A stretch of 64,000 nucleotides of DNA from an uncultured Nitrososphaerota archaeon (GCA_963718895.1 CAVRAG010000008.1:1548040-1612039); one strand, 5' to 3'. Counted from the first letter of the stretch, positions 1 to 25,851 are shown. Made by a program: numbers and translations. Notes: generated by a model from the sequence alone, not told the origin.

Positions 1-1
1 G

Positions 2-5157: not shown

Positions 5158-5733
5158 CTAATTGTGTGCACCGATGCTTCTCCCACGCTCGGATTCCAGT
5201 AGACTGACCCAATCCCCTTCTTTGAACTTGGGGCGTGGACCACCTGACGTCTGGCGTCCTGTGGTCTGATGCAAGACAAAACCGAATCCCGCTGTCACTC
5301 CGGCAAGGACAAGCCACTCCGCCAAGTAAAGGGGAGTCGAAGGACTTGCCAAACCACTCGCCGAATAGCCCGCCAACAGGATCAAATCAGCACCAAGGAA
5401 CGCAATGAGGGCCGACCCGAGCAGGCCGAGCAGGAGGCCCCTGGTCGATGAAGTCGCCACTAGTTTACCGGGGAGGTAGCCAAACGCCGTTGTCGCCAAG
5501 GGGCTCGCTATCGTGAAAGTCTGTGCAACCAAGGTTGTCAGGTCGGACGATTGCGCACCGTTCGCTGTGGCGGCACCCAGATTGGCAATCAGAGGGACTA
5601 TTGCTCCGAGCCCGAATAGCGCACCCCCCTCGTAGCCGTATAGGAGTCCAACGGAAAGAGGTGTCAACATGTTGAGAGGAAGTATTAGAAACGATACCTT
5701 AGGAATCAGAAGGATCATGACGTCCGTGGCCAA
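5158..5733 (-). CDS. Multi-pass membrane protein (start uncertain)
   Basis: 191 aa, about five hydrophobic helices; follows the surface-protein gene on the same strand. Confidence 0.55.
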   Translation of the reverse strand: MATDVMILLIPKVSFLILPLNMLTPLSVGLLYGYEGGALFGLGAIVPLIANLGAATANGAQSSDLTTLVAQTFTIASPLATTAFGYLPGKLVATSSTRGLLLGLLGSALIAFLGADLILLAGYSASGLASPSTPLYLAEWLVLAGVTAGFGFVLHQTTGRQTSGGPRPKFKEGDWVSLLESERGRSIGAHN

Positions 5734-5771
5734 GTAGAACAGGCTGCCGAGTACGAGGAGCCTCCGCGTTC

Positions 5772-8120: not shown

Positions 8121-8419
8121 GATACGACTGAGTTCACTCCTTAATACTTTTTCAAGGAACAGAAGGGCTCTGGATAGGAATGAGTTTGGGGGTGACTCGC
8201 CTCACCAGGCATGCTGAGACTGCCGAGAGTAGTGACAAGAATGCTGGATGCAGTCAGCGATAATCTCCTCACACGTTCACAGTCAGGTAGTCCGCTTATT
8301 CAGTTTTGGACCTACAGTTTAGAACTCAAGACGTGTCTCGAACTTCTCACTTGTTTTCGTTCAGGTCGGAGTGGGCAGTCTATGGCGTCCCTTCACTCGT
8401 GAAATCGCATTCTGGAACC

Positions 8420-8545
8420 CTACGCAACCTGCGCCACCTTCACCATCCCAACCGCCGTCGTCTTCAGGCCCGGGTCGATGTACCTCTTGAAGATGGCAAG
8501 GTCCTCCGGGAGTCTCGAGCGCGATAGGGTACTCCATCTCGTACT
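8420..8545 (-). pseudogene. C-terminal remnant of a HerA-like ATPase paralog
   Basis: Translates across one frameshift as EYPIAL/RLPEDLAIFKRYIDPGLKTTAVGMVKVAQVA*, similar to the tail of the 13967-15161 ATPase (DPIALRLPEYIAIFRRYVNPDVPEAGTGFVMVPRVA). Confidence 0.7.
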
Positions 8546-8667
8546 CCTTCTGTGAGACCAAGTTTCGCTATTCTCTTGGCTCTGAGCACGTATGAGTTTG
8601 GCCTGTCGGATTCCGACACTGGCAACATACGTACGTGAGGCGACAGCACCGTTGACTGTCCATCTCT

Positions 8668-9096
8668 TCATTGGGTCTTCTCAACTGGCTTCCAATTCTT
8701 TGTATAGCGCTGAATCGGCTTCTCAAGGAACTTGGGATCTAACCCGATGGCATCTTTTAGGATAAGACCAAGATGTCTAATAAGATAGTCGCCAATTTCA
8801 AGCTGGAATTGTGGCTTGAATGGGGAGTCGAGATGAAGCTCCGATTCCATCAGTGCCCCGAGTTCTGCCCCTTCTTCCGTTGTTAGAAAGTCGTCTATCT
8901 TAGCGAATACTTCGCCGATCTCCAAGTTAGAGGCTGGATACAACAGATAGGTTCTCCACATGAGGTGACTGGAGTCACCCTCCTTGACTTCACTTGCAGG
9001 AGCGGACCCAGCGAAAAGACTCTCGGTCGAGCTAAGAGGTCCTATTAGTTTCGAGCGCAAAACCAGTCGCCTAACTGCTACTGACTCTATCTTCAT
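8668..9096 (-). CDS. Hypothetical protein
   Basis: 142-aa ORF overlapping the end of the upstream 499-aa gene. Confidence 0.6.
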   Translation of the reverse strand: MKIESVAVRRLVLRSKLIGPLSSTESLFAGSAPASEVKEGDSSHLMWRTYLLYPASNLEIGEVFAKIDDFLTTEEGAELGALMESELHLDSPFKPQFQLEIGDYLIRHLGLILKDAIGLDPKFLEKPIQRYTKNWKPVEKTQ

Positions 9097-10570
9097 TGAT
9101 TCTCACCATTATTTCAACTCCGACAGAAGTGTTGGGTAGTCGCTTTGGGAACACGAACATGACCTGATGCTCACTGCTCCAGTTTGGTTCTGGGTCAGAC
9201 TTGATAAAGGTGCACCACTCTGGGAGAAGCAATTCGAATACTTCGTCTGTTGATGCGTATGATGTGTTTATCAGATAACCAAGTCTAATCTTGTGTTCTT
9301 TGCCAATCTTTTCCATCTTCATGACTTGGTCGTACTCAAACAGAAGACTGGCAGATTCTTCGTCCGCAGAGGGCCGTCTCGACTTGATCTCCAGAAGCGG
9401 CCCACTTGGGGTATTCCTAATCGAATAGGGCAATCTATAGAAGTAGTCCTGCACTATGACTTGTTTTGGCATCGAATACAGACCAACAGTCAAAGTTTGG
9501 TCATAGTGCGCTTGTGCTTGGTGCCTCGCATTTGAGTAGACTTTGAACTCGAAATATCCATCCTCATTGGAGTTAGATATGAGACGTACTGTTGTCTTCG
9601 AGTAACCTTTGTACTGTGTCTTCTCCCACTGGCTCAGGATATGTTCTATCTTGTCATGCCTTTCCTTACTTTGGTCCCGTAATGATCTGGGAAACGGAAT
9701 TCGAACGCTCATCAAGATTACCTTGTCAGAAATGACCCGAATCCACATCAGTTGTCGGAAGAATGATGCCGTGAAAGCATAACCATAGATGTATTTCTCG
9801 AGTTCAAAATCTCGTTCTATGCCATACGAATCTTCCATGCCTGACTTTTGAATCGCATCTTGCAACTGCTCAGGTGTCTGGAACATGTTGAAAACGGTTA
9901 TCTTAACCCAGCGGATTGATATTGGAAAGAATAGGAGGGAAATCAGGGCAAGAATGAAGCCGTACGCACCATACACTAGCCCACTCGTCCCTAATTTCAG
10001 GCGATAAATCATAGGATAAGACCTACCTTTCGGCCTACGTGGCGTCGCTGGCTGACCCAACGCCAGAATTGCTCCGAGAATCAAGAGGAGATCAATAGAG
10101 ACTCGCGTTACAAAACCACCGAGGACTTGGACGATGACACCTGGAATCTCCGCCTCAAGGTGTCGTTGGACCGGCTCGCCAATCCACAGCACCACACCTT
10201 GGCCCAGTCGCACGATTGCCGCAAGACACACAAGAATCAACACCCACCCTAACATGCTGTGCATCAGCCTAGACCGAGAAGACATTTCTCGTGACCCGGC
10301 TATACCGTAGAAACCAATCGATACTAACGGGAGAACAATTGCCAAAGCTAGAGCTTCCAAAACAGTAAGGAATTCAATCCGAAGTCCGGCGGCCGAAAGA
10401 AGATCAGCCACAGCGTAGAGTGCAAACGCGATGGCAGAAAGACGGAGAAAGAAATCTCTCAACATTACCAAGCGAGTACCTTTCTTTCCCCTTGTCACTT
10501 CGTCGACGACCGTTTCAAGAGGAAGCCTCATTAGACCGCCAGATTCATCTCCTGGAACCCATTCGCTCAT
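9071..10570 (-). CDS. Membrane protein with about five N-terminal TM helices and a soluble C-terminal domain
   Basis: 499-aa ORF, hydrophobic N-terminal half, relatively AT-rich. Confidence 0.7.
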   Translation of the reverse strand: MSEWVPGDESGGLMRLPLETVVDEVTRGKKGTRLVMLRDFFLRLSAIAFALYAVADLLSAAGLRIEFLTVLEALALAIVLPLVSIGFYGIAGSREMSSRSRLMHSMLGWVLILVCLAAIVRLGQGVVLWIGEPVQRHLEAEIPGVIVQVLGGFVTRVSIDLLLILGAILALGQPATPRRPKGRSYPMIYRLKLGTSGLVYGAYGFILALISLLFFPISIRWVKITVFNMFQTPEQLQDAIQKSGMEDSYGIERDFELEKYIYGYAFTASFFRQLMWIRVISDKVILMSVRIPFPRSLRDQSKERHDKIEHILSQWEKTQYKGYSKTTVRLISNSNEDGYFEFKVYSNARHQAQAHYDQTLTVGLYSMPKQVIVQDYFYRLPYSIRNTPSGPLLEIKSRRPSADEESASLLFEYDQVMKMEKIGKEHKIRLGYLINTSYASTDEVFELLLPEWCTFIKSDPEPNWSSEHQVMFVFPKRLPNTSVGVEIMVRINEDRVSSS

Positions 10571-10683
10571 TGTCTCTTTACTCGATCTAGATGCACTTGA
10601 GTCATCTCTTTCTGCCTAATGTTATTAGGAAGGCCTAGTTATCGCCCGCGAGACCATAACCGCCCACTCGAGCCAAGCATAAA

Positions 10684-10704
10684 GGTTCATTGCATCCGGC
10701 TGGT
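10684..10704. repeat. Highly degenerate copy of the 23S 3' BHB arm
   Basis: ggttcattgc (10 nt exact) followed by atccggctgg; lies just past the stop of ORF 10714-11016. Confidence 0.4.
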
Positions 10705-10713
10705 TTGCACCCT

Positions 10714-11016
10714 TCAAATCTGGGAAATGGTCGCGCGACATACAATGCCTTTGTTATAATCCACTGATAATGAACCATCAGGATTCTTCCAGATTTCACA
10801 TTGTGTTTCTTGAGTCGCTTTCTCTATCGCATCGAACACAGACCTTGCTTCTACTATGTATGGGTCCTTTCCTCCAACCATTCTGATTGCAAACCTCTTA
10901 GGAATGTTGGCAGTCTCTTCTTTCGACACATGGCTTGGGGGTTCCGTGTTATCCTTGTTGTACATCCACAGGTTAACCCACTTCCAGAAATCAGGCACCC
11001 GTTCCATGTCTCTCAC
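10714..11016 (-). CDS. Hypothetical cassette protein
   Basis: 100-aa ORF between two repeat copies. Confidence 0.6.
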   Translation of the reverse strand: MRDMERVPDFWKWVNLWMYNKDNTEPPSHVSKEETANIPKRFAIRMVGGKDPYIVEARSVFDAIEKATQETQCEIWKNPDGSLSVDYNKGIVCRATISQI

Positions 11017-11278
11017 CGATTATGGCATTCGGTACCAGGAACTTTCCCAAACAACTCTTTCCACAACTCTCTTTCTTTCTCTTCCGCCCTCTTATTGCAG
11101 CATGGTTTCCACTGCGTTTGTATTCTATTCATCGCAAAGCCTTCGCTAAGCCGCGGACGTCGTCGTCCCATCTCGTCCGATCTCAGCAACGATTCTGATT
11201 ACTTGTTACGTATATAAGCGTTACAGCTATCAAGAGATTATCTTGAATTCTAGAAGAAAGTGCTCCGGAAATCCACAT

Positions 11279-11300
11279 GGTTCATTGCGCCTCCGCCTGG
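11279..11300. repeat. Partial copy of the 23S 3' BHB arm
   Basis: ggttcattgcgcctccgcc is identical over 19 nt to 19935-19953. Confidence 0.85.
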
Positions 11301-11309
11301 AGAGTATTC

Positions 11310-12293
11310 TCAGAATTGGGGTAGGTCAGTCCGGGAGGCTCTCCGCCAAACGACATGTATGAGTCTCGCACTCTCGATGACTCCGAAGAAGTACAGTGCA
11401 ATCGTCAGTAACGAACTTACGCGATTCGATAGTATCTGTGAAATCGAAGAGATGGGTTGAATGCTAAGGTGAAAGTTGGTGTATGTCTGCTCCATGTCGA
11501 AGGAACTTCCATTGAACATCGTCACTACGAGTAATGGTGAGTAATCGCCCCCCGAAGGAAAGGCAATGTAGGAGCAGCAATATGACCATTCACCTGCGGA
11601 TTTGTGGTCGAGAGAGATGAACTGTTCTGCAGTATTGGCATCCAGCGAGGAATTGGATAGGACTTGGCTTTGAAATGCAAAATCCATATGGTCAATGCTC
11701 GAGGCGGTAGTCACGTTATACACAGAGGCGGTCACACTAACATTGATTGATAATCCAGCTACGAATTCGAGTTCGTCGGTTAGGGTGTTGTGTAGGAATA
11801 CGACGATGGCGACGTCTTGGGATAAGGGTGATTTGTTGGAGAAGCTGAAATCCATTGGGGCGTTAATAGCGTAGCCACCTGCCTCACTTCCAAGGGCCTG
11901 CGTTGTTATGATAGTTCCTCCAATAAATGCCCCGAGTAACAGATCAACAAAAATCACGACAACCACTAGAAGATACCACACCCAGCGAAATCTTAGAAAG
12001 CTTCTCCTAGTGCCTCTTGTAAGCTCTTCTAGAAGTCTACCCACTTTGGGTATTCTTGTGATAACCGAGTTGGGATTCAATGATGCTGAATCATTGACTG
12101 ATTCAGGCGTGAAACCGTAGACGACTGCTAGCGTCCCAAAGAAGACCAAGGCGACATACAATTCAGTTAGATTACCTGCTTCCGGAGTACTAAGCACCTG
12201 AGAAGCTATTGATCCTTCTAGTGTGAAAATTGTCAGAAACCAAATACTCATGACAATGAATGATAGACCAATTAAGATGGCATATTTTCTCAA
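11310..12293 (-). CDS. Membrane protein (cassette gene)
   Basis: 327 aa, three N-terminal and one C-terminal TM segments; AT-rich; stop about 10 nt from a repeat. Confidence 0.7.
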   Translation of the reverse strand: MRKYAILIGLSFIVMSIWFLTIFTLEGSIASQVLSTPEAGNLTELYVALVFFGTLAVVYGFTPESVNDSASLNPNSVITRIPKVGRLLEELTRGTRRSFLRFRWVWYLLVVVVIFVDLLLGAFIGGTIITTQALGSEAGGYAINAPMDFSFSNKSPLSQDVAIVVFLHNTLTDELEFVAGLSINVSVTASVYNVTTASSIDHMDFAFQSQVLSNSSLDANTAEQFISLDHKSAGEWSYCCSYIAFPSGGDYSPLLVVTMFNGSSFDMEQTYTNFHLSIQPISSISQILSNRVSSLLTIALYFFGVIESARLIHVVWRRASRTDLPQF

Positions 12294-12348
12294 ATCTGGG
12301 AAATAGACTCACGTATCGCTATTTATCAATAATGTGTAACAATGACTC

Positions 12349-12418
12349 TTGTGCCTCCGCCGGGGCATTTCATCCACACGTTGGGCTATCGCAAGTCGAC
12401 CGGCTGAACGCGCCGCCC
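12349..12418. repeat. Copy of the 23S rRNA 3' terminus plus BHB arm
   Basis: 70 nt aligning to 19941-20010 with 7 mismatches by manual count; extends ~40 nt into the mature 23S. Confidence 0.95.
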
Positions 12419-12435
12419 TCGGCAGGGTCCGACCT

Positions 12436-13089
12436 TCATCGTCCAAACGCCCACGCCACCATGAGCGGTAACTCTTCTCGCCAGAATGCGTCGCCGTGCG
12501 ATCCGACCCGCTCGATCATGACGACGTCTGCACCCGCATCGCGCAGCGCGGTCGCCCACCGCCTCGCGTTCTCGAGGAAGAACGGCTCCAGGGTGCCGGC
12601 GACGAGATACGCGCGCTGCACCGATCGCGGCATAGCTTCAGGAGGGCGGTAACCCCCGCCTGGCGAGGCGCAGAAGATCGCACCGTAGATGTCCGGATGG
12701 CGAAGCCCAATGGCGAGCGCGAGCTCTCCACTCGCCGAGACACCGAACACCGCGGTGCGCTCGGCGGGCAGCGCCACTTCGAAACGCGACCTCGCCCATC
12801 GGCGGAGGTCCTCGACAAAGAACTTCTCGTGCGCCGCGAACCGCACCGGGTCAAACGCCGGTGAGTACTCATGGAGCCGCAGCGTCTCATCGTCCAGCCG
12901 GTGTGCACCGACGATCATCGTGGGCGGTACGTCGGCCGCCTCGAGGGCTCCTCCCCATTGCGCGATCAACTGGCCGTCACCGGCGAACACGACCGCCTCG
13001 GGCGGATCAGGTGGGACATACACCGTGACCTGACGACCACCATCGTACTCGAACGTCTCGGTGACGAGCTCTCCCTTGATGGACGACAT
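12436..13089 (-). CDS. Alpha/beta-hydrolase, putative esterase (Fes/IroE-like)
   Basis: GVSASG nucleophile elbow, C-terminal GSHG catalytic His; GC-rich (~65% in a sampled line). Confidence 0.85.
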   Translation of the reverse strand: MSSIKGELVTETFEYDGGRQVTVYVPPDPPEAVVFAGDGQLIAQWGGALEAADVPPTMIVGAHRLDDETLRLHEYSPAFDPVRFAAHEKFFVEDLRRWARSRFEVALPAERTAVFGVSASGELALAIGLRHPDIYGAIFCASPGGGYRPPEAMPRSVQRAYLVAGTLEPFFLENARRWATALRDAGADVVMIERVGSHGDAFWREELPLMVAWAFGR

Positions 13090-13127
13090 CGTCGCTGGTG
13101 AGATTGCCTGTGATATTGGTATTCTCG

Positions 13128-13159
13128 ATTGCGCCTCCGCCTCGGCATTTCATCCACAC
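13128..13159. repeat. Partial copy of the 23S 3' BHB arm
   Basis: attgcgcctccgcctcggcatttcatccacac matches 19940-19971 at 30/32. Confidence 0.9.
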
Positions 13160-13179
13160 ATAGCACTGGACCTGAATCT

Positions 13180-13572
13180 TCAACCCTTGAGGACGTTCTC
13201 GTCAACTTTCACGAGCAACCAAGAGTAGAGGTTGGTTCGAAGCTTCCTGTTCCTCGGGTTTCCACATACTACAAAATCTTCACCCTGCTTCAAGTGGATG
13301 TGTATCCGAGGACTGGGTAGGTAAGGAGTCAGGCCTTCTTGCAGCGACATGGTACCTATATCTGAGTAGTTGACATCTCGACGAAGACTTCTTCCGACGA
13401 GTTGGAATAGATTTTCGTAGAATCTGGCCGCTCGAACGGGTTGAATCCAGTTTCGAATGACTCCAGGGACGCAGAGTGCTGAGCCAAAAAGGAGCCCGAT
13501 CGACCCAGCGAATGCGGCAGGAGAGTAGAACAACAGGCGAACCCCAAAGTACAGGCTAGCAACTGTGAGCAC
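13180..13572 (-). CDS. Small membrane-anchored protein (two TM plus PH-like domain), 5' end possibly degraded
   Basis: 130-aa ORF with hydrophobic N-terminus; stop about 20 nt from a repeat. Confidence 0.55.
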   Translation of the reverse strand: MLTVASLYFGVRLLFYSPAAFAGSIGLLFGSALCVPGVIRNWIQPVRAARFYENLFQLVGRSLRRDVNYSDIGTMSLQEGLTPYLPSPRIHIHLKQGEDFVVCGNPRNRKLRTNLYSWLLVKVDENVLKG

Positions 13573-13810
13573 GGAATAGCTGGCAAGAGCGGGAGTCAGT
13601 GAACAAATGAATAGCGTAGGTTCTAGCTGCTTTCAAAGTATCCCTTCCAATCGCAAGACGAGCGAACCAGGCGTGACGAGAAACCACGCATCAATCAGCC
13701 TATCAGCGATTTGAGCCGCGGCAACGACACTTAACTTTTGTCAAATGCGGTTACTGAGATTCGTAGTGTCTAGGCTTCCTTTGATCTTAGGATGCCGTAA
13801 AATGGGCAAG

Positions 13811-13880
13811 TGCCATGTATAGGGTTCATTGCGCCTCCGCCGGGGCATTTCATCCACACGTTGGGCTATAGTAAGTCGAC
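13811..13880. repeat. Near-perfect copy of the 23S 3' terminus plus BHB arm
   Basis: 70 nt aligning to 19923-19992 with 3 mismatches. Confidence 0.97.
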
Positions 13881-13966
13881 CTTTCTTGTGTGGGTTCCAG
13901 ATTACCTTTCGCTCTTCGAAATCCTTGGCCCCAAAGGACCAATCTTCACAGACGCTGAAGGCCCAA

Positions 13967-15161
13967 TCAGTTTCGAGCGGCGACCCTGGGTACCATCACG
14001 AACCCCGTGCCCGCCTCGGGCACGTCAGGGTTTACGTATCTCCTGAAGATCGCAATGTACTCGGGAAGTCGCAGCGCAATAGGGTCGCCGCAGCGCGTCG
14101 TTCTCGCCGGGAAACGGGTCCCCGCCCAGGGCCTTCTTCACGACATCGTAGCTGTCGAGGTTGGTGAGCCGGTGGGCTATCACGGTCCCGCAGTTGTCCC
14201 AGACGTACCTGGAGAGCAAGGTCGGCATCTGGTCGACGATGATGAACCCCCAGCCGTATCTTCTGGCCTCAGCTATCGCGAGCTCGAGCAAGGTCCTGTC
14301 TCCCCTCTGCTGCGGGGGCCTCTCCTCGCTGAGATACCTGTGGGCCTCCTCGACCACGATCAGCCGCGTGAGCTGCTCAGGGGGCAACTCCCGGTTGAAG
14401 GCCCGGGTCTTGTCGTGCTGCCAGAGCTGCGCCAGCATCATCTCGGCCAAGAACCGCTGGTCCCTCAGCGAATCGACCTGCCCTATCTCGTAGACTGTGA
14501 CCCTCTCTTCCATCCCCGCGAAGTCAAGGGCCAGCTCCGAGTTGAGCGAGGACCCGACCGCGCCCATGTTTATGATGTGCAGCCTCGACTCGAGAGCGCG
14601 CTGGCTGTTCTGCTCCTTGCTGCTTCCCGCCCTGAACTGCGCTACGGCGCCCTCGAGCTCGCGGAGGGTGGGGCTCGTCCTCAACTCTCCCCGGAGCGAG
14701 CAGAGGCAGTCCAGCAAGATGCGCCTCGATGGCTCGGACAACCCGTACGCCCTCGTGAAGACGTCTGTGAAGGCCCTGTCCCACGGGTCGGCCATAGAAC
14801 CCGGGGGAGGGATCAGCGGATTGAACCTGATGGTGGGCTCGTCCCCCACCGCGAGGATCTGGACGTCCTCGTCCAGCAGGCCCTTCAGCTCCCTGTACTC
14901 GCGCTTCACGTCCACGATGAGGCAGGCCTTCTTCCGGTTCCTCAGCGACTGCTCTATCGCGTGGAAGGTGTGGTTCGTCTTGCCGGAGCCCGTGGCTCCC
15001 ACGATGAGCGCGTGCCTCAGCAGGAGCCGGTCGGTGAAACCGAAGCGGGTGTGCCTGGCCTCGCCGAGCACGGCGAAGATCTTCTTGTGTCCGGAGTTCC
15101 GGCTCCTGACCCGCGACTTCATCAGGTCCTCGAAACCCGGTTCAGATGGGTCATCGAACAT
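13967..15161 (-). CDS. HerA/FtsK-family (DUF87) ATPase, frameshift near the 3' end
   Basis: Walker A GATGSGKT, DVKREY, Walker B LIVVEEAH, EARRYG..DQ; alternative frame near 14090 gives a plausible C-terminus ending at 13967. Confidence 0.9.
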
Positions 15162-15624
15162 CCAGGTGAGCCTCCAGCTCCTTGAGCATCCTGCAGAGTC
15201 TCGTGTACTCCGCCTGGTCGACCTTTCCCCTCTCGTAGGACATCCTCGCTCCGTCGGACGCGAGGCGGAGAGCCTCTGTCCATCCCGGGCTCTGAAGCTG
15301 CGGGGCCCTTCCAGTGAGGACGCTCTGGAAGGTGACTGAGATCGCCTCGATGAGCTTCTCGGAATACTGCGAAGCCCTGTAGGCCTGCCCCCTCTTCTCG
15401 AGCATCCCGAGGTCGACGAGCCTTGAGAGACGGAACCACGCGCCGGCCCTTCCCACCCTGAAGACGGACCTCGCGTCGGTGTTGTTCACCGGCTTGATGG
15501 TCGCGATGCTCAGCAGGTCGATGACCTTCTCGTCGGAGAGGGCGTACAGGTGTTCCCTGAAGTGCCTAATCAGCGCCAGATCCTGGGTCACCGACTTTAC
15601 CCCCGTCGAGCTCAACATCTCCAC
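15151..15624 (-). CDS. Winged-HTH-like protein coupled to the HerA ATPase
   Basis: AWFRLSRLVDLGMLEKRG wHTH-type motif; overlaps the ATPase start. Confidence 0.6.
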   Translation of the reverse strand: MEMLSSTGVKSVTQDLALIRHFREHLYALSDEKVIDLLSIATIKPVNNTDARSVFRVGRAGAWFRLSRLVDLGMLEKRGQAYRASQYSEKLIEAISVTFQSVLTGRAPQLQSPGWTEALRLASDGARMSYERGKVDQAEYTRLCRMLKELEAHLDVR

Positions 15625-16316
15625 CCTGCCTCCGGAAAGGAACTCTGCTTCAACTCGAATCGGCGCGGCTCCCGTCTTAAAGGAGATTCCTTACAACGCG
15701 TAAGTACAACTTGTAAGGAAAGGTTTTCTTCTCTAGCTTCAGGGGCGCCCTCACCTGCGTCTTCTGTGGTCAACCTTCCGTGGGGACGCGACCCGCTTAT
15801 AGACGGTTCCGCACCTTATTGACGTACCTAAGATACGTTTCCGGGCCTACCGAGTCGGACTTTCTGAGCGGGTCAGCGGTGCTTCGAGGTATTGCAATGT
15901 TCAGGTACTGATATGAGTGTTTTTGCAATCTCGTCCCGTCAAAGTGGCGCGTACGACATCGTCCTCGCGACGTCAAAACGAGATTCGACGCGATGAGATG
16001 GTATGACGTCAAACCGGGATTTGACACACGTCAAATAGCATCTCGACATGCTCGGTTCTAAATAGCGATCCAGACGAACCATCCACGCTCATATCGTCCC
16101 GACGTTCAAACCCCGTGTTTTTGTCTTCCTACTCTCGAATCTAACTGTCCAACTACTTGCCTTTCATCCCTCGCTTCCCCTGATCTTCTGATCTTACTGC
16201 CTGTCCTCCAACCTCGCTAATGCTCAGGCCACGTACTCCGTTTCTCCTACCAGCTCCGAATCCATGACCTCCCAGTGCGCTCGCTACCGACGACTGAAGC
16301 TCTGATGTGATGCCCA

Positions 16317-17618
16317 ATGTACGAAGAAGATCTGCATCCATATGAAGTACCCAAACCGGGAATTGGTACCTCATCTGACGAACGAAGGCCGCCTGGCTCT
16401 GGACCCGTCGCTTTCTTTGTCCGCAGTAGCCAGCATGGTTCCCGCACCAATGAGAGAGAAGAAGATGTACCAAGGCTTGTTGGAGGCAATAGGCCGTTTC
16501 CCCGTCTCGGAAGTCTGCCTACGAGCACCCCATATATCACGTGCCTGCGGGCTGCGAAATACTTCGATGGCCTCGCCCTGATTGTGCCGAAGAGAGCGCT
16601 GCCAGAGCACTCCAAGAGCGACATACTCGAGATTAAGGTCGCCAGATGCGCCGAACCCGAGAAGGAGCTGTCGCTGTACGGGAGACATCAACCAGGATAC
16701 AAGTGCGCGAGGCTCGATCTGAACCAGATTGAGGTAGCTTACGGCGAAGAGTTCTGGGTTAGATCGGTAGGGAAGTATCTGCCTCAGAAGTTAGCATCTG
16801 AGTACAACCTCATGAAACCGATAGGCCTAGAGAATACAGAGCTGATTCTGGACGGAAGGCCTTGCCTGAGAGTGGACGGGACTGAGGTCAGACTGGCGGT
16901 GAAGAGGTTCAGGACCTTCGAGAGCAAGGCGATATTGGACGTGGAATTTGGTAGTGGTGGACTGATTAGGGTGATAAGAGGGTTGGAGGGTTTCAACGTA
17001 AAGACCAGGAATCACTCTCAGGTCTACTCCATGATGACAGATGGAAGGCAGGTACTGATTACCTACAAGATGCCAGGCGAATCGATGCACACACGAGTAG
17101 TGGACTCGAGCACGGCTAGCTATAGCACAGTCAATTCAGTGCCGGAGATTGGTAGTCGCGCAGATCTACTTGCCATACCTGATTCGTTTGAAGGAAGATA
17201 TGTCATAAGGTTGAATTCACGGTTCATGGTACACATGATAGCAAAGTTGGTTAGACATGGTGCGTGCAGATATGAGAAGGTGAGAGGGGACATCGGGGAA
17301 GAAATCATAGATTCCATCCTGTCACAGATTGGCGTCCCGCAACTGATAGGTCATCCCCTGGATCCCGGGAGGGACTACGATTCAAGTCGTAAAGGACCAG
17401 ATAGCTTGAGGAAGGTCCCGATTGTCCAGCTTGGCTACTTCGAATTCAAGTGGTGGAAGGAAGCCGAGAAAGCGTCCTACGAGGCACAAGTACAAGCCAG
17501 CAGGTTCCCGCGAGGGAAGAGATTCAGGGGGCAGAGAATCGGGGGCGCTTATATTGCAAATCTCGATTGGGATATGTCAAGCCCAATGTGCTCGTTGACC
17601 GTATCGAGAGTGTGGTGA
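16317..17618 (+). CDS. Hypothetical protein with C-terminal PD-(D/E)XK-like nuclease motif (start probably further downstream)
   Basis: RGDIGEEI...KGPD...YFEFK spacing resembles restriction-endonuclease-fold motifs. Confidence 0.55.
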   Translation: MYEEDLHPYEVPKPGIGTSSDERRPPGSGPVAFFVRSSQHGSRTNEREEDVPRLVGGNRPFPRLGSLPTSTPYITCLRAAKYFDGLALIVPKRALPEHSKSDILEIKVARCAEPEKELSLYGRHQPGYKCARLDLNQIEVAYGEEFWVRSVGKYLPQKLASEYNLMKPIGLENTELILDGRPCLRVDGTEVRLAVKRFRTFESKAILDVEFGSGGLIRVIRGLEGFNVKTRNHSQVYSMMTDGRQVLITYKMPGESMHTRVVDSSTASYSTVNSVPEIGSRADLLAIPDSFEGRYVIRLNSRFMVHMIAKLVRHGACRYEKVRGDIGEEIIDSILSQIGVPQLIGHPLDPGRDYDSSRKGPDSLRKVPIVQLGYFEFKWWKEAEKASYEAQVQASRFPRGKRFRGQRIGGAYIANLDWDMSSPMCSLTVSRVW

Positions 17619-18263
17619 ATGTCGAGTCAAGCTGATGAGGCAGAAGCGGTTCGAGAAGTAGTGTCCGGACTCACCAACGCCGAATTTGAAATCATGGACA
17701 TCAAGGACCAGCATCCGGATAGCAAGATATCTCCGATTTGGTTCATGAGTTGCCGCGAAATCACTCAGGCGAACAAGATTCCCCACGTCCAAGCCATCTG
17801 GAGAGGGAAGGGAGAAATCCGAATAGAGTCTCTGACAATAGGCAACACTTCTGATTGGATTGAGGAGAGCGGAGGGGAGGAGGCCGTCTATCCCGTCCTG
17901 GAAATGGACCTGACGAACTTCTGGGACCCCGGGTTTCGCAAGAGGTTCCTGAGGGGGTTTCCTGACCTTAAGATAAGACTTGGATGGTGTGAGGCGATTC
18001 TTGCCGATGTCTCGAAGAAACGCGGTGTCAAGCTTGAAATCCGATTCGACGGAGGAAAGGGGCTTGCGGTATTCTACATTGACGCGAAGGTGAAGGCCAC
18101 CCCGGAGAAGATTGGACTGGAAATCAAGCGCGTCGAGAACGCGTTGAAGGCGCTGAAGGAAGCTTACTCGGAGGTCGCGGGAGAGGTTCGCGACGCCGAA
18201 ATGGAATCCAGAGAGTTCCGCAAATGGAAGCTAAGGGCCAGAGCGGAAGCATCAAAATCCTAG
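17619..18263 (+). CDS. Hypothetical protein
   Basis: 214 aa, starts directly after the previous stop. Confidence 0.65.
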   Translation: MSSQADEAEAVREVVSGLTNAEFEIMDIKDQHPDSKISPIWFMSCREITQANKIPHVQAIWRGKGEIRIESLTIGNTSDWIEESGGEEAVYPVLEMDLTNFWDPGFRKRFLRGFPDLKIRLGWCEAILADVSKKRGVKLEIRFDGGKGLAVFYIDAKVKATPEKIGLEIKRVENALKALKEAYSEVAGEVRDAEMESREFRKWKLRARAEASKS

Positions 18264-18270
18264 GACATAT

Positions 18271-18302
18271 TGTGTATGGTGTTTATCGCACCTCCGCCCG
18301 AG
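18271..18302. repeat. Degenerate copy of the 23S 3' BHB arm
   Basis: tgtgtatggtgtttatcgcacctccgcccg versus tgtgtagggttcattgcgcctccgccgg. Confidence 0.5.
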
Positions 18303-18399
18303 ATAAGGGCACCTACGCTGTGGAGCGTTGGATGATTCTAGATTTCCTCAATCGAGCATCGATCCAACTGACTTGATTCAAGTGGGCTTGCACGGCTAC

Positions 18400-19179
18400 T
18401 CACTCCCGTAGCACGCCTTGACCACGCTCTGTTAGTTCATAGTGTTTCTTAAGCAGGCCTGTTTTCTTCAGATACCCCTTCCTTACCAAGGACTCGAAGT
18501 GGGACATGTAAGGATAAACCGGCTCCTTGCGAGTCCTCCCTACGATGGCGAGAGCATCGTATTCGTTCTCGCTTAGGTCCGAGCGTAATTTCGGCCTAGT
18601 TCCATATTGCGGTTTGGAGACACTGTCCTTGTTTTCTGATTCCATGCTGGGCTTCAGTCGCTCGGGATGGAAGCGCCCATCGGACGAATCATAGGTACGC
18701 CTAATGGCGTCCTGCGCCTCACGAGGATATCTTTCCACTTCTCGGAGTGATATCCCTCTGTTAGGAGGTCTCTCAAAACGATACTCCTCCCGGCTTGACC
18801 TTGGTGACTTGCTTGGGGGCTTGGGTATCAAGTGGGTCTCTTTGATTTTGACGACTAGCGCTTTGAAGATTTCTTCTTCGTTTTCTTCAGAATGACCCTC
18901 CCACAGAAGTACGTTCAAGTGAGAAGCGAACGTTTCAGGCATAGTGATTGGATAACTTCCCAGTTTGAGTTTGACAGCTTCGCCAAGGATTTCGCCAAGA
19001 TTGCTTGTTGGTACAGCGCACTTGGCTATTATCCAATAACCCTGACCGCTTCTGTCGAAGTAATCTCTCAGACCACCTGAGACAAAATCTCTTCCGAAAA
19101 CTCTAGATTCGGTCTTCCGTTCCACCGAAATTCTTACTGTCAAACCGTTGAGAGATTGAGATTCGGATGTTACTGGCAT
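18400..19179 (-). CDS. Hypothetical protein with C-terminal wHTH-like segment
   Basis: 259 aa; LVRKGYLKK...YELTERG motif. Confidence 0.6.
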   Translation of the reverse strand: MPVTSESQSLNGLTVRISVERKTESRVFGRDFVSGGLRDYFDRSGQGYWIIAKCAVPTSNLGEILGEAVKLKLGSYPITMPETFASHLNVLLWEGHSEENEEEIFKALVVKIKETHLIPKPPSKSPRSSREEYRFERPPNRGISLREVERYPREAQDAIRRTYDSSDGRFHPERLKPSMESENKDSVSKPQYGTRPKLRSDLSENEYDALAIVGRTRKEPVYPYMSHFESLVRKGYLKKTGLLKKHYELTERGQGVLRE

Positions 19180-19775
19180 TTGCTAAATCCCAAAATTCTA
19201 CCGTATGTCAGCCGTGGTTTCGCGCTTTCGTAGGTTAGAATCTCCTGAATGAGTTTCAGTTCGTGACATAATATAGAACGCAGGGCCATTATAGACCCGA
19301 GGGCTGTATAATCGTGCAAGTTATGAATGCTTCCTTGGCAGTGACCAGAACTTCGACTTAAGTAAGAAAGACCATGTCTATGCATAGGTTCATTGCGCCT
19401 ATGCTGGCGGCATTTCCCATCAGGAGGCAATCTTCTGACAAATGATTCCAAAGCCATTAGACAGACGCGATATTTCACTTGATGGCCACGGTTCTCTCTT
19501 TCGTGCCGTTGAGCGGGTTCCACTGACTCGAATGATGCTTGGCACGTATAGCAAATGTAATGGGCCATGTAACCTGCTCTCTTTACCAACCTACTAGGAG
19601 GTAGCGAATTCGACTCGTAGAGGCCGCTTGGGCTGTTCATGATCTCCTTCGAAACACAGGTGTGTCGCTCCGGCAGCCTATGTTCCCCGCAGAGTGCTTT
19701 CCCACAATACTTGCACTTGAAAGGGAATGCTTCCTCGGCTCCACATTGCTGACATGAAGTCATGTAATCAGCCAT
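19170..19775 (-). CDS. AN1-type zinc-finger protein; ORF reads through the downstream repeat
   Basis: CxxC...FKCKYCGKALCGEHRLPERHTC AN1 signature plus a C2H2-like CYTC...H motif. Confidence 0.75.
   Translation of the reverse strand: MADYMTSCQQCGAEEAFPFKCKYCGKALCGEHRLPERHTCVSKEIMNSPSGLYESNSLPPSRLVKRAGYMAHYICYTCQASFESVEPAQRHERENRGHQVKYRVCLMALESFVRRLPPDGKCRQHRRNEPMHRHGLSYLSRSSGHCQGSIHNLHDYTALGSIMALRSILCHELKLIQEILTYESAKPRLTYGRILGFSKCQ
19362..19421. repeat. Diverged copy of the 23S 3' BHB arm and trailer
   Basis: gtaagaaag..catg...ggttcattgcgcct..gc.gg.ggcatttc aligns with 19910-19966. Confidence 0.8.
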
Positions 19776-19922
19776 AGCATATGACGGCGGCTAGTACATA
19801 TCGATGTCCTGACAGCTCTTTCCCCTCCACATGAGTCGCACAATCGAGTTACCGTAAGCGCTCATTGGAAGGTTCAGAAGCTCTAGCCCTTTGTCATTCT
19901 CGAGATACCGTAAGAAAAGGCA

Positions 19923-19970
19923 TGCCATGTGTAGGGTTCATTGCGCCTCCGCCGGGGCATTTCATCCACA
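19923..19970 (-). promoter_or_regulatory. 3' arm of the 23S pre-rRNA BHB processing stem
   Basis: RNA-sense ccccggcggag-GCGC-AAU-gaacccua pairs with the 5' arm uaggguuc-GCGC-AAG-cauccgccgggg (~23971-23998): 4-bp helix with two 3-nt bulges. Confidence 0.9.
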
Positions 19971-20289
19971 CGTTGGGCTATAGGTAGTCGACGGGCTGAA
20001 CACGTCGCCCGAGGGCTTCGTGCGTACACCCCCACTCCTTCAACGCGAGTCTTCTATCGCCGCCCTTCTCAGCGTGCCTCTTCGGCCTTGCGGCCGGAAA
20101 GGTGTAGCTGATAGAAGACTCTTCTTGGGAGTGGCTTCCTGCTTAGATGCTTTCAGCAGTTATCCACAATAGCTTAGCTGCCCAGCTATGCCCTTTCGGA
20201 CAACTGGTACGCCAGAGGCTACGCGCCGCTGTTCCTCTCGTACTGGGCAGCGCTTCCTCGCAGTTTCTTCCGCTTCCATCAGGTAGAGG

Positions 20290-20343
<54 letters not shown>

Positions 20344-20397
20344 GCAGCCCCACCCTTGGCCCCTGCTGCAGGACCAGGATGGGAAGAGCCGACATCG

Positions 20398-21014
20398 CAA
20401 TCTTATCCGAAATTTCTTTCAGGATTAGACTATGTCTTCACCCCCCGCACTTCCGTTCGATAGGGGGGTTGGCGTATGATGGCTCGGAGCCTTTCGGAGG
20501 CCTCCCGAGTTGTATTGTCGCGACACGTCGGACGTGCCGCGTCGGGAGACAGCCCCAAGCCATCTCATTGCGCCGCAATATTCTGCGCGCTCAGTCGTTA
20601 CGGGGTCATATGGGAAGATCGTTTCTACCTGTGATGGACAAACCACAACCGCATCGTCACCGGCCCGCCCTATGGCAGGACGGCACCTAGCCGCAGGCTG
20701 CGCCCGCTTTGCAAGCATCCGCCCGAAGATAGCATACACCACTTCCGGAGCGGATACCGCTGCCGGAAGATGATTAATCACTCTGTCTGTCCTTCCATCT
20801 GATAGAAGTGCCCTTTGGAGCGAACTCTTGGCTGTTTTTTCCTTCTGCAGTTGCCCGCTAAGGCAACCAATGCTCGCTTACTTTACCCGTAGACTTCCCA
20901 CGGCGTTGTCCTCTCCCGTTTCCTCAGTGTTCTCACAGGAGGAGGAGTTCGCCGTTATAAGCCAATACTACAAATCGCATTACTGCGATTCTGCCCCGAG
21001 CGCCGATAGCGCCA
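20398..21014 (-). ncRNA. Group I intron at 23S position L2500 (E. coli numbering), 617 nt, no intact ORF
   Basis: Interrupts GGUACCU|CGAUGUCGGC; 5' exon ends in U and intron ends in G; P AUAACGGCGAA, Q ACAACGCCGUGG, R CGUAACGACUG, S GAAGACAUAGUCU. Confidence 0.93.
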
Positions 21015-21587
21015 AGGTACCAAACCGCGGGGTCGATTGGAGCTCTCGCCCGCGACGAGCCTGTTACCCCTGGGGTAACTTTTCTGTCACATCCAGCCCC
21101 CAACAGTGGGGACTTGAATGATCGCTAGGCCACACTTTCGTGGCAGAAAACTCTGCGTTTAAGTTTCCTGTCAGGCTGGCTTTTGGCCTTGCCCTCAACA
21201 CTGGAGTTCTGACCCAGTCTGAGCCAACCTTTGGGCCCCCTCGATATCTTTTCAAGGGGGTGCCGCCCCAGCCGAACTGCCCACCTGCCGGTGTCCTCCC
21301 GTAGGAGTTAGCGATACAGTCTCAAGGGAGGGGTGTTACATTGTTGCCTCCATCGTCACCCGAAGGCGACGACTTCGACGGCTCCCCGTTACACTCTGCA
21401 ATCGCAACCGAATCGCAGCAACAAGCTGCAGTAAAGCTCCACAGGGACTTCTCTCCCCGATGGAAGTTGCTGGACTGTTCGTCCAGCTTACGTAGGTTCG
21501 CCGGGTCGTAGATAGGGACAGCGGGGCCCTCGTTGGTCCATTCATGCACGTCGGAACTCACCCGACAAGGCATTTGGCTACCTTAAG

Positions 21588-21890
21588 CAATCTGTTGCTT
21601 CCTTGGACCTCGACCACGGGATCGAGGCGGGCTCTCCTTCCTTCACCTGAGCCTCACTGCATCGCTGCAGTGTTCGGACTGTAACATGGTCGCAGCGAAT
21701 GCGGCTTCTGGCGTTCAGTCTCTGAGGATTCCGGACGAAGCCCTGCGGCTCGCCCGGCCTTTCCTGCTGATTGTCTGCAGCCATGGCGTTGTCAGTCCCC
21801 AGTTGGGGACTAGCCTGGCATACTCAGATGTTCCAGCATACGGCCAGATTTAGCGACTCCCTTATTTTTTCCTCGAACTGTTTTTACCTG
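21588..21890 (-). ncRNA. Group I intron at 23S position L1923, 303 nt, ORF-less
   Basis: Interrupts CUGACUCU|CUUAAGGUAGCC; U/omega-G rule met; P UAUGCUGGAA, Q AAUCAGCAGG, R CUCAGAGACUG, S AUGUUACAGUCC. Confidence 0.93.
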
Positions 21891-23955
21891 AGAGTCAGAG
21901 TTACTCCCGGCGTTAACAGGCCCTTAGCCCAGTTGAACCCAGGTTTTAGGTACCTGCACTGGCCAGGATTCATAAACTGTACACATCCTTTCGGACTTGC
22001 AGTTTACTGTGTTTTTATTAAACAGTCGGGACCCCCTCGTTATTGCAACCTGCGATCCCAATTTCTACATTAAGAAAGCAGGCACCACTTTTCGCTAACT
22101 TACGTGGCTAATTTGCCGAGTTCCCTTACCTACAGTTCCCCGACACGCCTTAGGCTTCTCACCTAGGATCACCAGTGTCGGTTCTAGGTACGATCTCAAT
22201 ATCCCTCTCCTCCTCTGTTTTCACTGTCTCCAGGAATCAGCTAAACGACCCCAACGGGCCGCTATTCTCCTCTCGGAAGAGTTCTCGTCATTACGACACT
22301 CCCTCCCCCTTCGATGATTAAACAGAGCGAAAAACTCTGTAAGGCTGGTCTCGAAGCATCAGAGGCGATGTTTTCCTTGCGGGACATCGGAATACCAAAG
22401 GCTGCGGAATATTAACCGCATTCCCTCATTCGAACGAATACTGTTGAGTTTCGTTCTTAGGATCGGCTAACTCCTGGCTGATGACGCATTGCCAGGAAAA
22501 CCGTGTCCTTTCGGCGGTCAGGATTCTCACCCGACTACGCTGCTACTACTACCGGGATCTGCACTGGAAATCGGTCCACTGGACCTCACGACCCAGCTTC
22601 TATCCCAATCACCACGCCCATCTACCACATACGTCCCACAAGGACGCAGTCCAGAGTATCGGTACTTGGCTTTAGCCCCGTCCATTTTCGGGGCCCTCAA
22701 CCTCGGCAGGTGAGCTGTTACGCTTTCTTTGAAGGGTAGCTGCTTCTAAGCCTACCTCCCTGCTGTTTTAGGTCAAAGACTCCCTTTTGCTTGACACTTA
22801 GCCAAAATTTGGGGACCTTAACTCTAGTCTGGGTTAACCCCCTCTCGGTTATGAGGCTTACCCCACATAAACCCGCCTCCCCACGTCTACTGCGTTGACA
22901 CATTCGGAGTTCAAGAAGAAAGTGGACCCTTTCGAATCCTTGTCTTCTCGTTGGTGCTCTACAGCGTCAACAACATCGGTGGAGACAGGACTGGGATCCG
23001 CTTCGATGGGAACTAGCAATCACCAAGCTAGATAGGCTTTTGGCCCCTTGTCCAGAATCAGGGGACTAAATTGCACGTTAAGACCCTTGCAGTCCTCCAC
23101 CAGGCTTTCGCCCGGCTTCATCTTGTTCTGGACACGATCGTTTGGTTTCTAGTCTAAACCGCCATGACTCTAAGGCCCTTTCAGACCTCCTCCCACGCCC
23201 TTGCGGCGTTACGGAGAATCGGTTTCCCTTCGCCTCCGGGCTTTGAACCCTTAGGCTCGCCATGACAGTTAACTCCCCGGCCCGTGTTTCTAGACGGAAC
23301 GCAGCACACTGAGGCACTTAACCCCCCTTGACGTCCCTTGCGGTGCCATCGCGTTGGATTCATACCTCTTTCATGCCCTGAACGTCTGTAGCTGGATGGT
23401 TTCAGGCTCTTTGCACACCCCTTTCGGGGTACTTTTCAGCTTTCCCTCGCGGTACTGTTTCTCTATCGGTCTTGGGTAGTGTTTAGTCTTGGAGGCTGCT
23501 TTCCCCCGTCTTCGCTAGCCACTGCCAAAGCCAGCTACTCTGCCTTTCAGCACAACCTCGTCTTCCAACTAGCCTACAGGACTATCACCTTCTGTTGTGT
23601 GCCATTTCCAGGCAAGTTCAGCTCACTGATCGCAGGGTTGCATATGCTGAGGCGAACCCCACATCTCCCTGCCCTTTCGGGCAGGGATTCGGTTTGGACT
23701 CTCCCGCGTTTCGCTCGCCGCTACTAACGGGATCTCAATTGATTTCTCTTCCTCCTGGTACTCAGATGTTTCCTTCCCCAGGGTTTGCGTTCCTTACGGA
23801 ACACAGGAGATGCCTTGCGGCAGTCTCCTTAGATTAGACTCCATTCGGGAATCTCCGGATCGAAGGATGCTTGCGCCTCCCCGGAGCTTATCGCAGCTTA
23901 CCACGCCCTTCTTCGCCATCCCAAGCCAAGCCATCCACCATACAGCGTCAGTTGT

Positions 23956-24163
23956 GTCGGATGATTAACATCCCCGGCGGATGCTTGCGCGAACCCTATG
24001 CATGGCATCATCACAGGGGCGCCCGCGAAGGCCCTTCCGTACCCTGCTAGCCCTTCCTATGCCACTCGCATGGCACAGTGCATCTTCATTACGTCTGATA
24101 CTGGCTTTGCCTTTCACTCCATTGCAGTGCGAGCAAATCCTTACTCCCAATCGGTATATACTA
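23956..24163 (-). promoter_or_regulatory. 16S-23S spacer holding the 16S 3' BHB arm and the 23S 5' BHB arm; no tRNA
   Basis: cgca-CUGC-AAU-ggagugaaaggcaaagcc pairs with the leader ggcuuugcuuuaacucc-GCAG-UAA-ugcg (~25680-25708). Confidence 0.85.
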
Positions 24164-25663
<1,500 letters not shown>

Positions 25664-25851
25664 CGATTATCGGGAGTTGGATACGCATTACTGCGGAGTT
25701 AAAGCAAAGCCAATGTCAGATCAAACTCTCGTTTGATCTCCACTTTTTGTGCGCGCATCTGGAGGCCGTGCATATCACCGACCGGGCTCTGCCCAAAACT
25801 CAACGCAGGCGCCGCCAAGCTATGCGCAAACCCACCGGAGGATTCAGGTCT

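Follow-up and report, generated by a model that had tools for sequence, protein, structure and literature searches.

How does the 3′ end of a 23S rRNA gene come to be repeated, time and again, in the DNA that follows it, with an unrelated gene lodged between one copy and the next? The question is raised by a 64,000-nt stretch from an uncultured soil archaeon of the Nitrososphaerota (GCA_963718895.1 CAVRAG010000008.1:1548040-1612039), below called the window, whose positions are counted from its first letter. A first-pass annotation of this sequence had read its positions 10684–20010 as an integron-like array of gene cassettes, in which unrelated genes had been captured one after another at the rRNA trailer, a displaced copy of the gene end being left by each event. 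Here, we follow these copies through the source genome (G000; 3.13 Mb), a metagenome-assembled genome (MAG; 80.5% complete, 5.4% contamination) in which the window corresponds to G000:C8:1548040-1612039, and through related genomes and metagenomes. We conclude that they belong to a far larger array of co-oriented sites, which is probably an integron-like capture platform, built on the bulge–helix–bulge (BHB) motif of the 23S rRNA precursor (pre-23S), worked by site-specific recombination with a recombinase acting in trans, and spread family-wide in soil Nitrososphaerota.

An Array of Co-Oriented Sites behind the 23S rRNA Gene

The copies were sought across the genome by short-word BLAST with the 23S end, then with an nhmmer profile built from 49 copies. 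The profile returned 111 matches at E ≤ 1, about one being expected by chance, and 88 of them stand in one block of some 130 kb (C8:1437k-1568k) that starts at the end of the 23S rRNA gene; the copies are thus clustered behind this gene rather than scattered genome-wide, scatter being an outcome that the first-pass annotation had named as fatal to its reading. On contig C8, all 94 profile matches lie on the minus strand. Sites follow each other at a median spacing of 820 bp (interquartile range 698–1488 bp), about 75% of the 87 intervals being of 1.5 kb or less. The window covers just the first tenth of this structure: the annotation had counted eight sites and had let the array end at 10684, whereas it resumes after an 18.8-kb site-free block and goes on for about 100 kb past the left edge of the window. 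Two secondary clusters were also observed in the genome, one of 5 sites at C8:1189-1222k and one of 13 site copies in mixed orientation at C4:263544-300952, away from any rRNA gene.

The Primary Site and the Processing Stem of Pre-23S rRNA

The single rRNA operon found in G000 is encoded on the minus strand, and the elements that matter here are the following.

24164–25663, minus strand: 16S rRNA gene (Rfam RF01959, 1447 bits)
23954–24038, minus strand: predicted 5′ strand of the processing stem of pre-23S, in the leader/spacer (−86.1 kcal/mol when cofolded with the trailer)
19961–23962, minus strand: 23S rRNA gene, 4002 nt (Rfam RF02540, 2325.8 bits, model positions 1–2987)
19914–19971, minus strand: predicted 3′ strand of the processing stem (23S trailer), pairing with 23954–24038; putative primary, 23S-proximal attachment site
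19934–19957, minus strand: conserved core common to the sites, CCCCGGCGGAGGCGCAATGAACCC (conservation peak over 68 array copies)
19947–19940, minus strand: putative crossover segment, GGCGCAAT, 8 bp

The core lies directly 3′ of the mature 23S end (19961), and the profile match at the primary site runs from 19992 to 19907 (E 2.5e-20). Read by hand, the core and its leader partner form a canonical BHB, with a bulge AAU at 19942–19940, a 4-bp GCGC helix, a leader bulge AAG and helices on both sides, the GCGC and the AAG bulge of the leader strand being found at about 23984–23990. This canonical 3-4-3 reading is isoenergetic with the computed minimum (−86.0 vs. −86.1 kcal/mol). The motif sits 20–24 nt outside both mature 23S ends, a distance at which archaeal pre-rRNA BHB motifs usually occur. 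Because the core segment and its leader partner form a canonical BHB, the core of all the sites is predicted to be the 3′ half (3′ strand) of the pre-23S BHB processing motif.

Anatomy of the Sites

Around the core, the arms vary: a site may have a left arm, a right arm, both or neither, and their lengths are variable: as much as about 50 nt of the mature 23S is reproduced in left arms, and as much as about 100 nt of the trailer in right arms. Sites with a right arm only begin at (G)AGGCGCAATGAACC, while sites with a left arm only finish at GGCGCAA(T). When the boundaries of 264 sites from seven genomes were gathered in a histogram, the right edge of the common core was found to be sharp at AACCC(TA), with 152 of the 264 sites ending within 4 nt of each other; since the site-finding motif demands most of the core, this histogram is biased, and its right-edge result alone is used. 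Moreover, which of the core variants GGC(G/A)C(A/G)ATG a site bears is independent of the cassette on either side, the outcome expected of a short exchanged overlap region. The first-pass annotation had likened the sites to the attC sites of integrons, a likeness that does not hold: none of eight sites folded as single-stranded DNA formed an attC-type hairpin (z from −0.20 to +1.26 vs. shuffles).

Cassettes as Mobile Units

Comparison of the array with itself revealed six duplicated stretches of at least 150 nt (79–97% identity), five of which are single inter-site intervals standing among different neighbours. Two cassettes that are adjacent at C8:1529984-1528327 recur apart, at C8:1492633-1491769 and C8:1507042-1506236. 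When the junctions of the duplicates are aligned, the common sequence starts and stops inside the core; at its upstream site, one moved cassette (Dup4B) shares about 15 nt of homology.

The same pattern is found between genomes. The G000 array shares 33 matches of at least 250 nt with six other genomes, and 32 of these have no internal site; therefore, no two adjacent cassettes are held in common. Seven of the 33, with identities from 72% to 95%, are bounded by sites at both ends; of the five matches at 89% or more, four are among these seven. Finally, five cassettes common to G000 and G007 are 89–95% identical, compared with 80.1% over 18 kb of syntenic core flank, which indicates cassette exchange between species. 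Because duplicates and inter-species matches alike are single inter-site intervals among different neighbours, the cassettes are, to judge from these comparisons, separate, independently mobile units bounded at the sites. This autonomy supports the capture of unrelated genes at the rRNA trailer, with displaced copies of the gene end bounding the units, as first proposed. Four soil DNA runs (one study, shares 0.05–0.07) gave no joints, just short contigs and loose ends at the core edges, which is no evidence either way on activity.

Distribution in Relatives and Metagenomes

Searched with an 86-nt query, 16 of the 18 sampled genomes of the same genus gave multi-copy matches, while none were obtained in 12 genomes from other families of the order. 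In a survey of the family, the best 11 matches per genome were scored and a genome was counted if it had at least six scored copies; 15 of the 23 genomes of the genus were so counted, along with 2/6, 2/3, 2/3 and 7/39 in four other genera. Six genomes that were fetched have arrays of 13–51 strictly co-oriented sites, each starting at the 23S end, and this starting point holds in all four genomes fetched from other genera. A single-contig genome of 2.25 Mb (G007) has 42 sites, and two genomes in three contigs have 51 (G009) and 18 (G018). Gene order is conserved between genomes upstream of the operon but not downstream, and the recurring architecture carries different cassette content from genome to genome, a point that the first-pass annotation had asked to be checked. 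In metagenomes, the exact 20-nt core occurs in at least 120 contigs. Together, those 120 carry 250 profile sites, with a common orientation in 61 of the 62 contigs that have several; among the matches listed, 18 of the 120 contigs carry the 3′ part of a 23S gene. An exact 20-mer search of viral contigs gave no match, and no virus or plasmid with the site was identified in this search.

Two further features of the relatives deserve mention. In G039, which belongs to another genus, a 9-site array behind the 23S gene faces an opposite array of 13 sites on the same contig (G039:C4:1037-32167; L045, L046), an arrangement that suggests inversion between sites. Site-free gaps of 15–24 kb are also observed in the arrays of G007, G009 and G017.

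Insertion next to the 23S gene would displace part of the processing stem, and the stem appears to be rebuilt. The sequence that follows the proximal core pairs with the leader of its own genome in six of seven genomes; compensatory changes are seen in G009 and G017, where a leader GCCGTG faces a trailer CACGGC or TACGGC. In G018 (G018:C3 ~203871-203938), where no trailer-like arm is present in the proximal cassette, the prediction is of a stem without its lower half (−67 vs. −88 to −95 kcal/mol). These folding predictions fit a scenario in which right arms that mimic the trailer would be retained for restoring the stem once a cassette has been inserted.

Sites and Cassettes of the Window

Within the window, the array reads as follows, from the 23S gene leftwards (ORF, open reading frame; GC, guanine plus cytosine content).

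19408–19933, minus strand: cassette 1, with an AN1 zinc-finger ORF at 19775–19170 (PF01428, E 1.5e-9)
19361–19407, minus strand: degenerate site copy (nhmmer E 0.051; 19387–19408 77% identical, 22 nt)
18303–19360, minus strand: cassette 2, with a 259-aa ORF at 19179–18400, without a Pfam family (ORF list, Pfam)
18272–18302, minus strand: very degenerate site copy (nhmmer E 0.97), core by eye GGCGGAGGTGCGATAAAC
13882–18271, strand not assigned: 4.4-kb multi-gene block (gene calls; GC up to 0.66)
13789–13881, minus strand: near-full-length site with 23S-like left arm, core and trailer-like right arm (nhmmer E 2.6e-21; 67/70)
13173–13788, minus strand: cassette with a 130-aa ORF at 13572–13180, without a family (ORF list, Pfam)
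13096–13172, minus strand: site with left arm and core only, homology stopping at ...GGCGCAAT (nhmmer E 1.5e-6)
12401–13095, minus strand: cassette with a putative esterase at 13089–12436 (PF00756, E 7.4e-9; GC 0.65–0.69)
12349–12400, minus strand: site with long 23S-like left arm and core, without a right arm (nhmmer E 4.2e-9)
11323–12348, minus strand: cassette with a 327-aa predicted membrane protein at 12293–11310 (ORF list, composition; GC 0.39–0.48)
11257–11322, minus strand: site copy, core exact over 19 nt (nhmmer E 5e-6)
10672–10704, minus strand: probable degenerate site, last before the site-free block (by eye; below the nhmmer threshold), reading GATGCAATGAACCTTTATGCTTGGC
1–10671, strand not assigned: window share of the 18.8-kb site-free block (full block C8:1540552-1559325, inside the array)

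The copies reported by the first-pass annotation were nearly all recovered: that at 13811–13880 is 67/70 identical to 19923–19992, that at 13128–13159 is 30/32 identical, that at 12349–12418 aligns over 66 nt (12353–12418) at 91%, and that at 11279–11300 is exact over 19 nt (11279–11297). Those given as 19362–19421 and 18271–18302 are present at 19361–19407 and 18272–18302 in the degenerate states listed above. Only the copy at 10684–10704 stays in between, with no nhmmer match at E ≤ 1 but 11 of 13 positions agreeing with the core by eye, which makes a degenerate copy plausible. Composition shifts as sharply as had been described, GC going from 0.39 to 0.69 between adjacent intervals, and the AN1 frame (19775–19170) does read through the degenerate copy that follows it.

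The 4.4-kb block encodes a HerA/TraG-like P-loop ATPase (15161–14025, minus strand; PF01935, E 7e-10), along with ORFs at 15624–15151 (157 aa, minus strand), 16317–17618 and 17619–18263 (both plus strand). The 18.8-kb site-free block has very large ORFs of 1587, 828, 782 and 603 aa, the 782-aa protein giving weak macroglobulin-domain matches, all under the Pfam cut-offs, and a fragment resembling DO-GTPase1 is also present. The whole block may have entered as a single unit, perhaps as an island of conflict or defence genes.

Over the whole array, two generalizations drawn from the window hold only in part. Co-orientation of the genes with the rRNA is true of the five small cassettes of the window but not of the array, where 42 cassettes are co-oriented and 19 opposite (binomial p 0.004, duplicates left in), a bias that is only suggestive as a hint of a platform promoter (Pc) driving the cassettes. 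Likewise, one gene per interval is the rule in 40 of the 65 intervals of 1.5 kb or less, whereas 21 have two genes or more and four have none. The multi-gene short intervals mostly hold toxin–antitoxin-like pairs, typically an ORF of about 80 aa overlapping one of about 130–150 aa. Among 111 cassette ORFs, Pfam identified 14 PIN domains, eight MazE-type antitoxins, two DUF433 and two Fic, the remaining matches being single (arginase, SDR, MFS, luciferase-like, MsrB, UbiA, methyltransferases, GNAT, etc.). By analogy, such a content resembles that of chromosomal integrons.

As for the surroundings of the array, the genes upstream of the operon are housekeeping genes (2-oxoacid:ferredoxin oxidoreductase, PhoU, DNA methylase, CysRS). 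A tRNA detected by Rfam at 55363–55449 (55 bits), without an ARAGORN call, is 87 nt long, which suggests that it is intron-containing or long-armed. The G000 23S gene is about 1 kb longer than the Rfam archaeal large-subunit model (2987 positions), and its insertions vary by genome: at the position of C8:1569247, the G010 gene is longer by about 900 bases (G010:C2 ~266977-267887), the G007 gene is longer by about 640 at that of C8:1570054 (G007:C1 ~1594257-1594900), and about 340 nt of the G000 gene (window ~20625–20965) are missing from three other genera. These size differences may be introns or expansion segments.

Candidate Recombinases

That no integrase is visible, as first noted, was borne out: neither the window nor the 130-kb array has a match to PF00589, all four matches of the genome lying elsewhere. 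The best candidates would be the intA-type proteins, which belong to a family of tyrosine recombinases of about 400–470 aa with a C-terminal CxxC...CxxC zinc ribbon. intA itself is a 443-aa tyrosine recombinase with such a ribbon, an intA-type gene being located at G012:C7:140887-142215, and four of the five intA loci having downstream sequence show a co-oriented core site and variable cassettes 530–590 bp downstream. Co-oriented sites also lie 2–3.5 kb downstream of L052, a paralogue with 70% identity, of L051, a homologue with 36%, and of L147, a fragment from a metagenome. The intA module is 91–94% identical between species with flanks that are 80–84% identical; the locus of G000 that is syntenic with this platform lacks a core site and carries another integrase. 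The catalytic domain of intA and of its G000 paralogue intB scores 47.6 to 63.1 bits against PF00589 (cut-off 27.1), with catalytic residues identified by eye from the alignment, and the only solved relative is PDB 4a8e, deposited as “probable tyrosine recombinase XerC-like” (E 4.6e-8). Against the IntI model TIGR02249, the candidates reach 20–40 bits (cut-off 265), while the XerA equivalog model NF040815 has no match above cut-off in five array-bearing genomes; the candidates, too, score below the XerA cut-off.

A second association is provided by a 26.6-kb block of G000 (C8:1189508-1216260; L002, L003), which is flanked by two full-length co-oriented sites and carries at one end two divergent tyrosine recombinase genes (461 and 398 aa) and a PLD-like gene, the 398-aa recombinase looking truncated or frameshifted in its catalytic half. 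This block looks like an integrated element using the same site as the array. Next to the C8:1189588 site stands an int1-type recombinase whose family is present in many copies (nine further G000 matches by tblastn, none near a site), and its association with the site is therefore treated as weak.

Zinc-ribbon recombinases were also observed directly after a tRNA-Leu, in G000 (C8:1338888-1340213; L009) and in G007 (G007:C1:1627270-1628598; L006), where they are the only copies of the family; the longest ORF of the tRNA-Leu-adjacent recombinase reads through the tRNA, and such a position is typical of elements that have integrated at tRNA genes. Among other enzyme classes, a serine recombinase occurs in one and a reverse transcriptase in two of the five array-bearing genomes, and neither tracks the arrays. 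Two 600-aa reverse transcriptase ORFs of G007 (G007:C1:1883084-1883773 and 2041636-2042325), with identical Pfam scores and far from the array, are probably copies of a group II intron. A conserved gene of about 870 bp, in or near all arrays, was considered as a recombinase and turned out to encode an aldo/keto reductase.

Proposed Mechanism and Competing Explanations

Three mechanisms had been put forward at the outset: a recombinase acting in trans, recombination anchored on rRNA homology, and an RNA-level route. We favour the first, without a nearby integrase, because the junctions fall in a short fixed core, homology is about 15 nt at some sites, and tyrosine recombinases stand beside secondary sites; the enzyme is most likely a tyrosine recombinase. 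The BHB would be the centre of the primary attachment site, formed by the 3′ strand of the processing stem of pre-23S. Cassettes would travel as small circles, each with one core and its own left and right arms, which the recombinase supplied in trans would insert and excise, with strand exchange in or beside the crossover segment. Each insertion would leave a site on either side, and arrays of co-oriented sites would therefore grow, their cassettes being then shuffled, duplicated and exchanged between species, while larger mobile elements would use the same site. Right arms that mimic the trailer are found in many cassettes, and any of these that landed beside the 23S gene would rebuild the lower half of the stem.

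Several observations weigh against this mechanism. Regarding the sites, the left edge of the core is diffuse (over the 264 sites of the biased count), no inverted-repeat symmetry of the kind found in simple tyrosine-recombinase sites was seen in the core by eye, and many cassettes have left arms copying mature 23S, beyond the reach of conservative recombination at the core; these arms may derive from aberrant excisions later favoured as mimics of the natural site, or from gene conversion. Regarding the enzyme, no recombinase tracks the arrays, the intA/intB family being present in 11 of the 23 genomes surveyed in the genus and 30 of the 81 sampled in the family. intA is split or stop-bearing in two of the four genomes having it, intB adjoins a tRNA-Leu and not a core site, and the intA loci, being orthologues that occupy the same conserved position on the chromosome of several species, count as roughly one observation. 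Moreover, G039, which is 96% complete and has 22 sites, gave no match to the XerA model, resolvase, reverse transcriptase or intB. Finally, the gene calls in cassettes, which are codon-usage-scored ORFs, are crude, and no recombination event was seen directly, the cassette circles being what we infer from the array.

An alternative that is possible, if clearly less probable, is a separate archaeal capture system convergent with integrons, family-wide and with its own recombinase family and sites of double-strand type, in which the BHB would be at once primary recombination site, processing signal and release point of cassette RNA. Transcription of the cassettes would start from the rRNA promoter, which is stronger than any other in the cell, and the endonuclease, by cutting at the BHB, would release the cassette transcript lying downstream. 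The 2:1 co-orientation of the cassettes would then be accounted for, as would the trailer-mimicking right arms.

Homology alone might also shuffle the cassettes: trailer-derived repeats of 25–90 bp would recombine through host homologous recombination or a repair pathway, so that the genes between them are excised, re-inserted and duplicated and foreign DNA bearing the same repeat is taken up, and no dedicated enzyme would be involved. Such a process fits the lack of a recombinase that consistently co-occurs with the arrays, the variable arm lengths and the diffuse left edge of homology, while gene conversion, or copying of the rRNA end, is suggested by the long left arms of 23S type. Yet some sites beside moved cassettes share just 15–22 nt or so, the right edge of the core is sharp, orientation is strict both on C8 and in the metagenome contigs, and tyrosine recombinase genes adjoin sites in several independent loci, so that we consider this explanation unlikely.

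We hold equally doubtful a passive tandem accretion, in which integrase-bearing elements (proviruses, plasmids) would have entered one after the other at an attB in the 23S trailer and decayed to stumps of one or two genes, without any cassette system. An attB at the 3′ end of a stable RNA gene with displaced partial copies is the classic pattern of such integration, archaeal elements arrayed in tandem at a single att site are known from PMC6563490 and PMC8371274, multi-gene blocks of 4–19 kb occur in the arrays of G000, G007, G009 and G017, and the 26.6-kb block with its two integrase genes is flanked by full sites. Against accretion speak the small and tightly distributed interval sizes, the absence of integrase remnants from the 130-kb array, the duplication and exchange of single-interval units intact, from site to site, and the presence of about 90 functional-looking cores, which would not be expected to survive decay.

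Very improbable is a route through RNA, by which read-through rRNA would be cut at the BHB by the splicing endonuclease, ligated to cassette RNA and copied to DNA. It draws its appeal from the core, which coincides exactly with the 3′ half of a canonical BHB, including the helices on either side, but the BHB, as the best-conserved stretch of the trailer, is what any integrase would be expected to pick anyway. Furthermore, the complementary 5′ strand is found as a single copy in the 16 kb searched (window 10000–26000), cassette-specific sequence starts 7–9 nt downstream of the predicted cut, and a reverse transcriptase occurs in just two of the five array-bearing genomes, in the form of group-II-like ORFs distant from the arrays. 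Lastly, a chaining of strain-variant rRNA flanks during assembly or binning, conceivable in that G000 is a MAG and that rRNA regions are often misassembled, can be set aside, because the same architecture recurs in the single contig of G007, in the three-contig genomes G009 and G018, in more than 20 other assemblies and on 62 multi-site metagenome contigs.

Comparison with Known Systems

Chromosomal integrons of the Vibrio super-integron type comprise about 100 cassettes over about 100 kb, with co-oriented sites and one gene or toxin–antitoxin pair per cassette, often without a nearby working integrase. The array is like these sedentary integrons in its approximately 90 co-oriented sites, its single-gene or toxin–antitoxin cassettes, and their duplication, shuffling and interspecies exchange; it differs in its short cores of double-strand type, which come from the rRNA trailer, in having neither attC palindromes nor IntI, in the location of its primary site in the 23S-precursor processing stem, in the opposite orientation of about one third of its cassettes and in its archaeal host. 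Xer-dependent modules (the pdif modules of Acinetobacter plasmids, IMEX) are small gene modules with short sites and a recombinase encoded elsewhere. The array shares with them small modules bounded by short sites and, on the mechanism favoured above, a recombinase encoded elsewhere, whereas no dif-like inverted-arm site was recognized by eye and no XerA passed the cut-off in the five genomes. To our knowledge, no general cassette-capture platform is known outside bacterial integrons, the reported archaeal integrons being of the classical bacterial type.

According to the main text of the study of archaeal integrons (Ghaly et al. 2022, PMC9668308), cassette arrays occur in archaeal MAGs, mostly without an adjacent integrase, in which they resemble the present array; they were defined by IntI genes and attC sites under bacterial criteria, and their attCs recombine with IntI1. 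The terms “rRNA”, “Thaumarchaeota” and “Nitrososphaer” are absent from that main text. In the main texts of PMC6563490 and PMC8371274, archaeal elements of the SSV/pNOB8 type and thaumarchaeal elements are described as integrating in tandem at the 3′ ends of tRNA genes, and rRNA has no occurrence in either. The likeness to the array is close: the attB lies in the 3′ region of a stable-RNA gene, core direct repeats mark the borders, re-use of the site gives arrays, and the incoming element restores the displaced part of the RNA. However, the array is made of about 90 units of 0.3–1.5 kb without integrases, and its target is a pre-rRNA processing stem. A description of an rRNA-anchored cassette array was not found in the literature consulted, which includes PMC9668308, PMC6563490, PMC8371274, PMC10640624 and PMC3293823, supplements being outside its scope.

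The array thus has neither the IntI nor the attC sites that define integrons, but it is a co-oriented array of mobile cassettes. That it lacks both defining features and yet behaves like an integron implies that cassette capture evolved more than once. We regard it as a variant of integron-like capture, with a real chance that it represents a separate class of capture system.

Several consequences follow for the study of soil archaea. Such arrays are a reservoir of accessory genes invisible to integron-finding software, and they will confuse binning and the assembly of rRNA flanks in soil metagenomes. The core of about 24 bp, together with the candidate recombinase family, might possibly yield a new tool for site-specific recombination. 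For the organisms themselves, the array takes up to about 4% of the genome in a family of abundant soil archaea, and horizontal gene transfer has a hot spot in the processing stem of the rRNA precursor. Constant DNA rearrangement must be reconciled there with an essential signal for RNA processing, the stem being rebuilt in six of the seven genomes.

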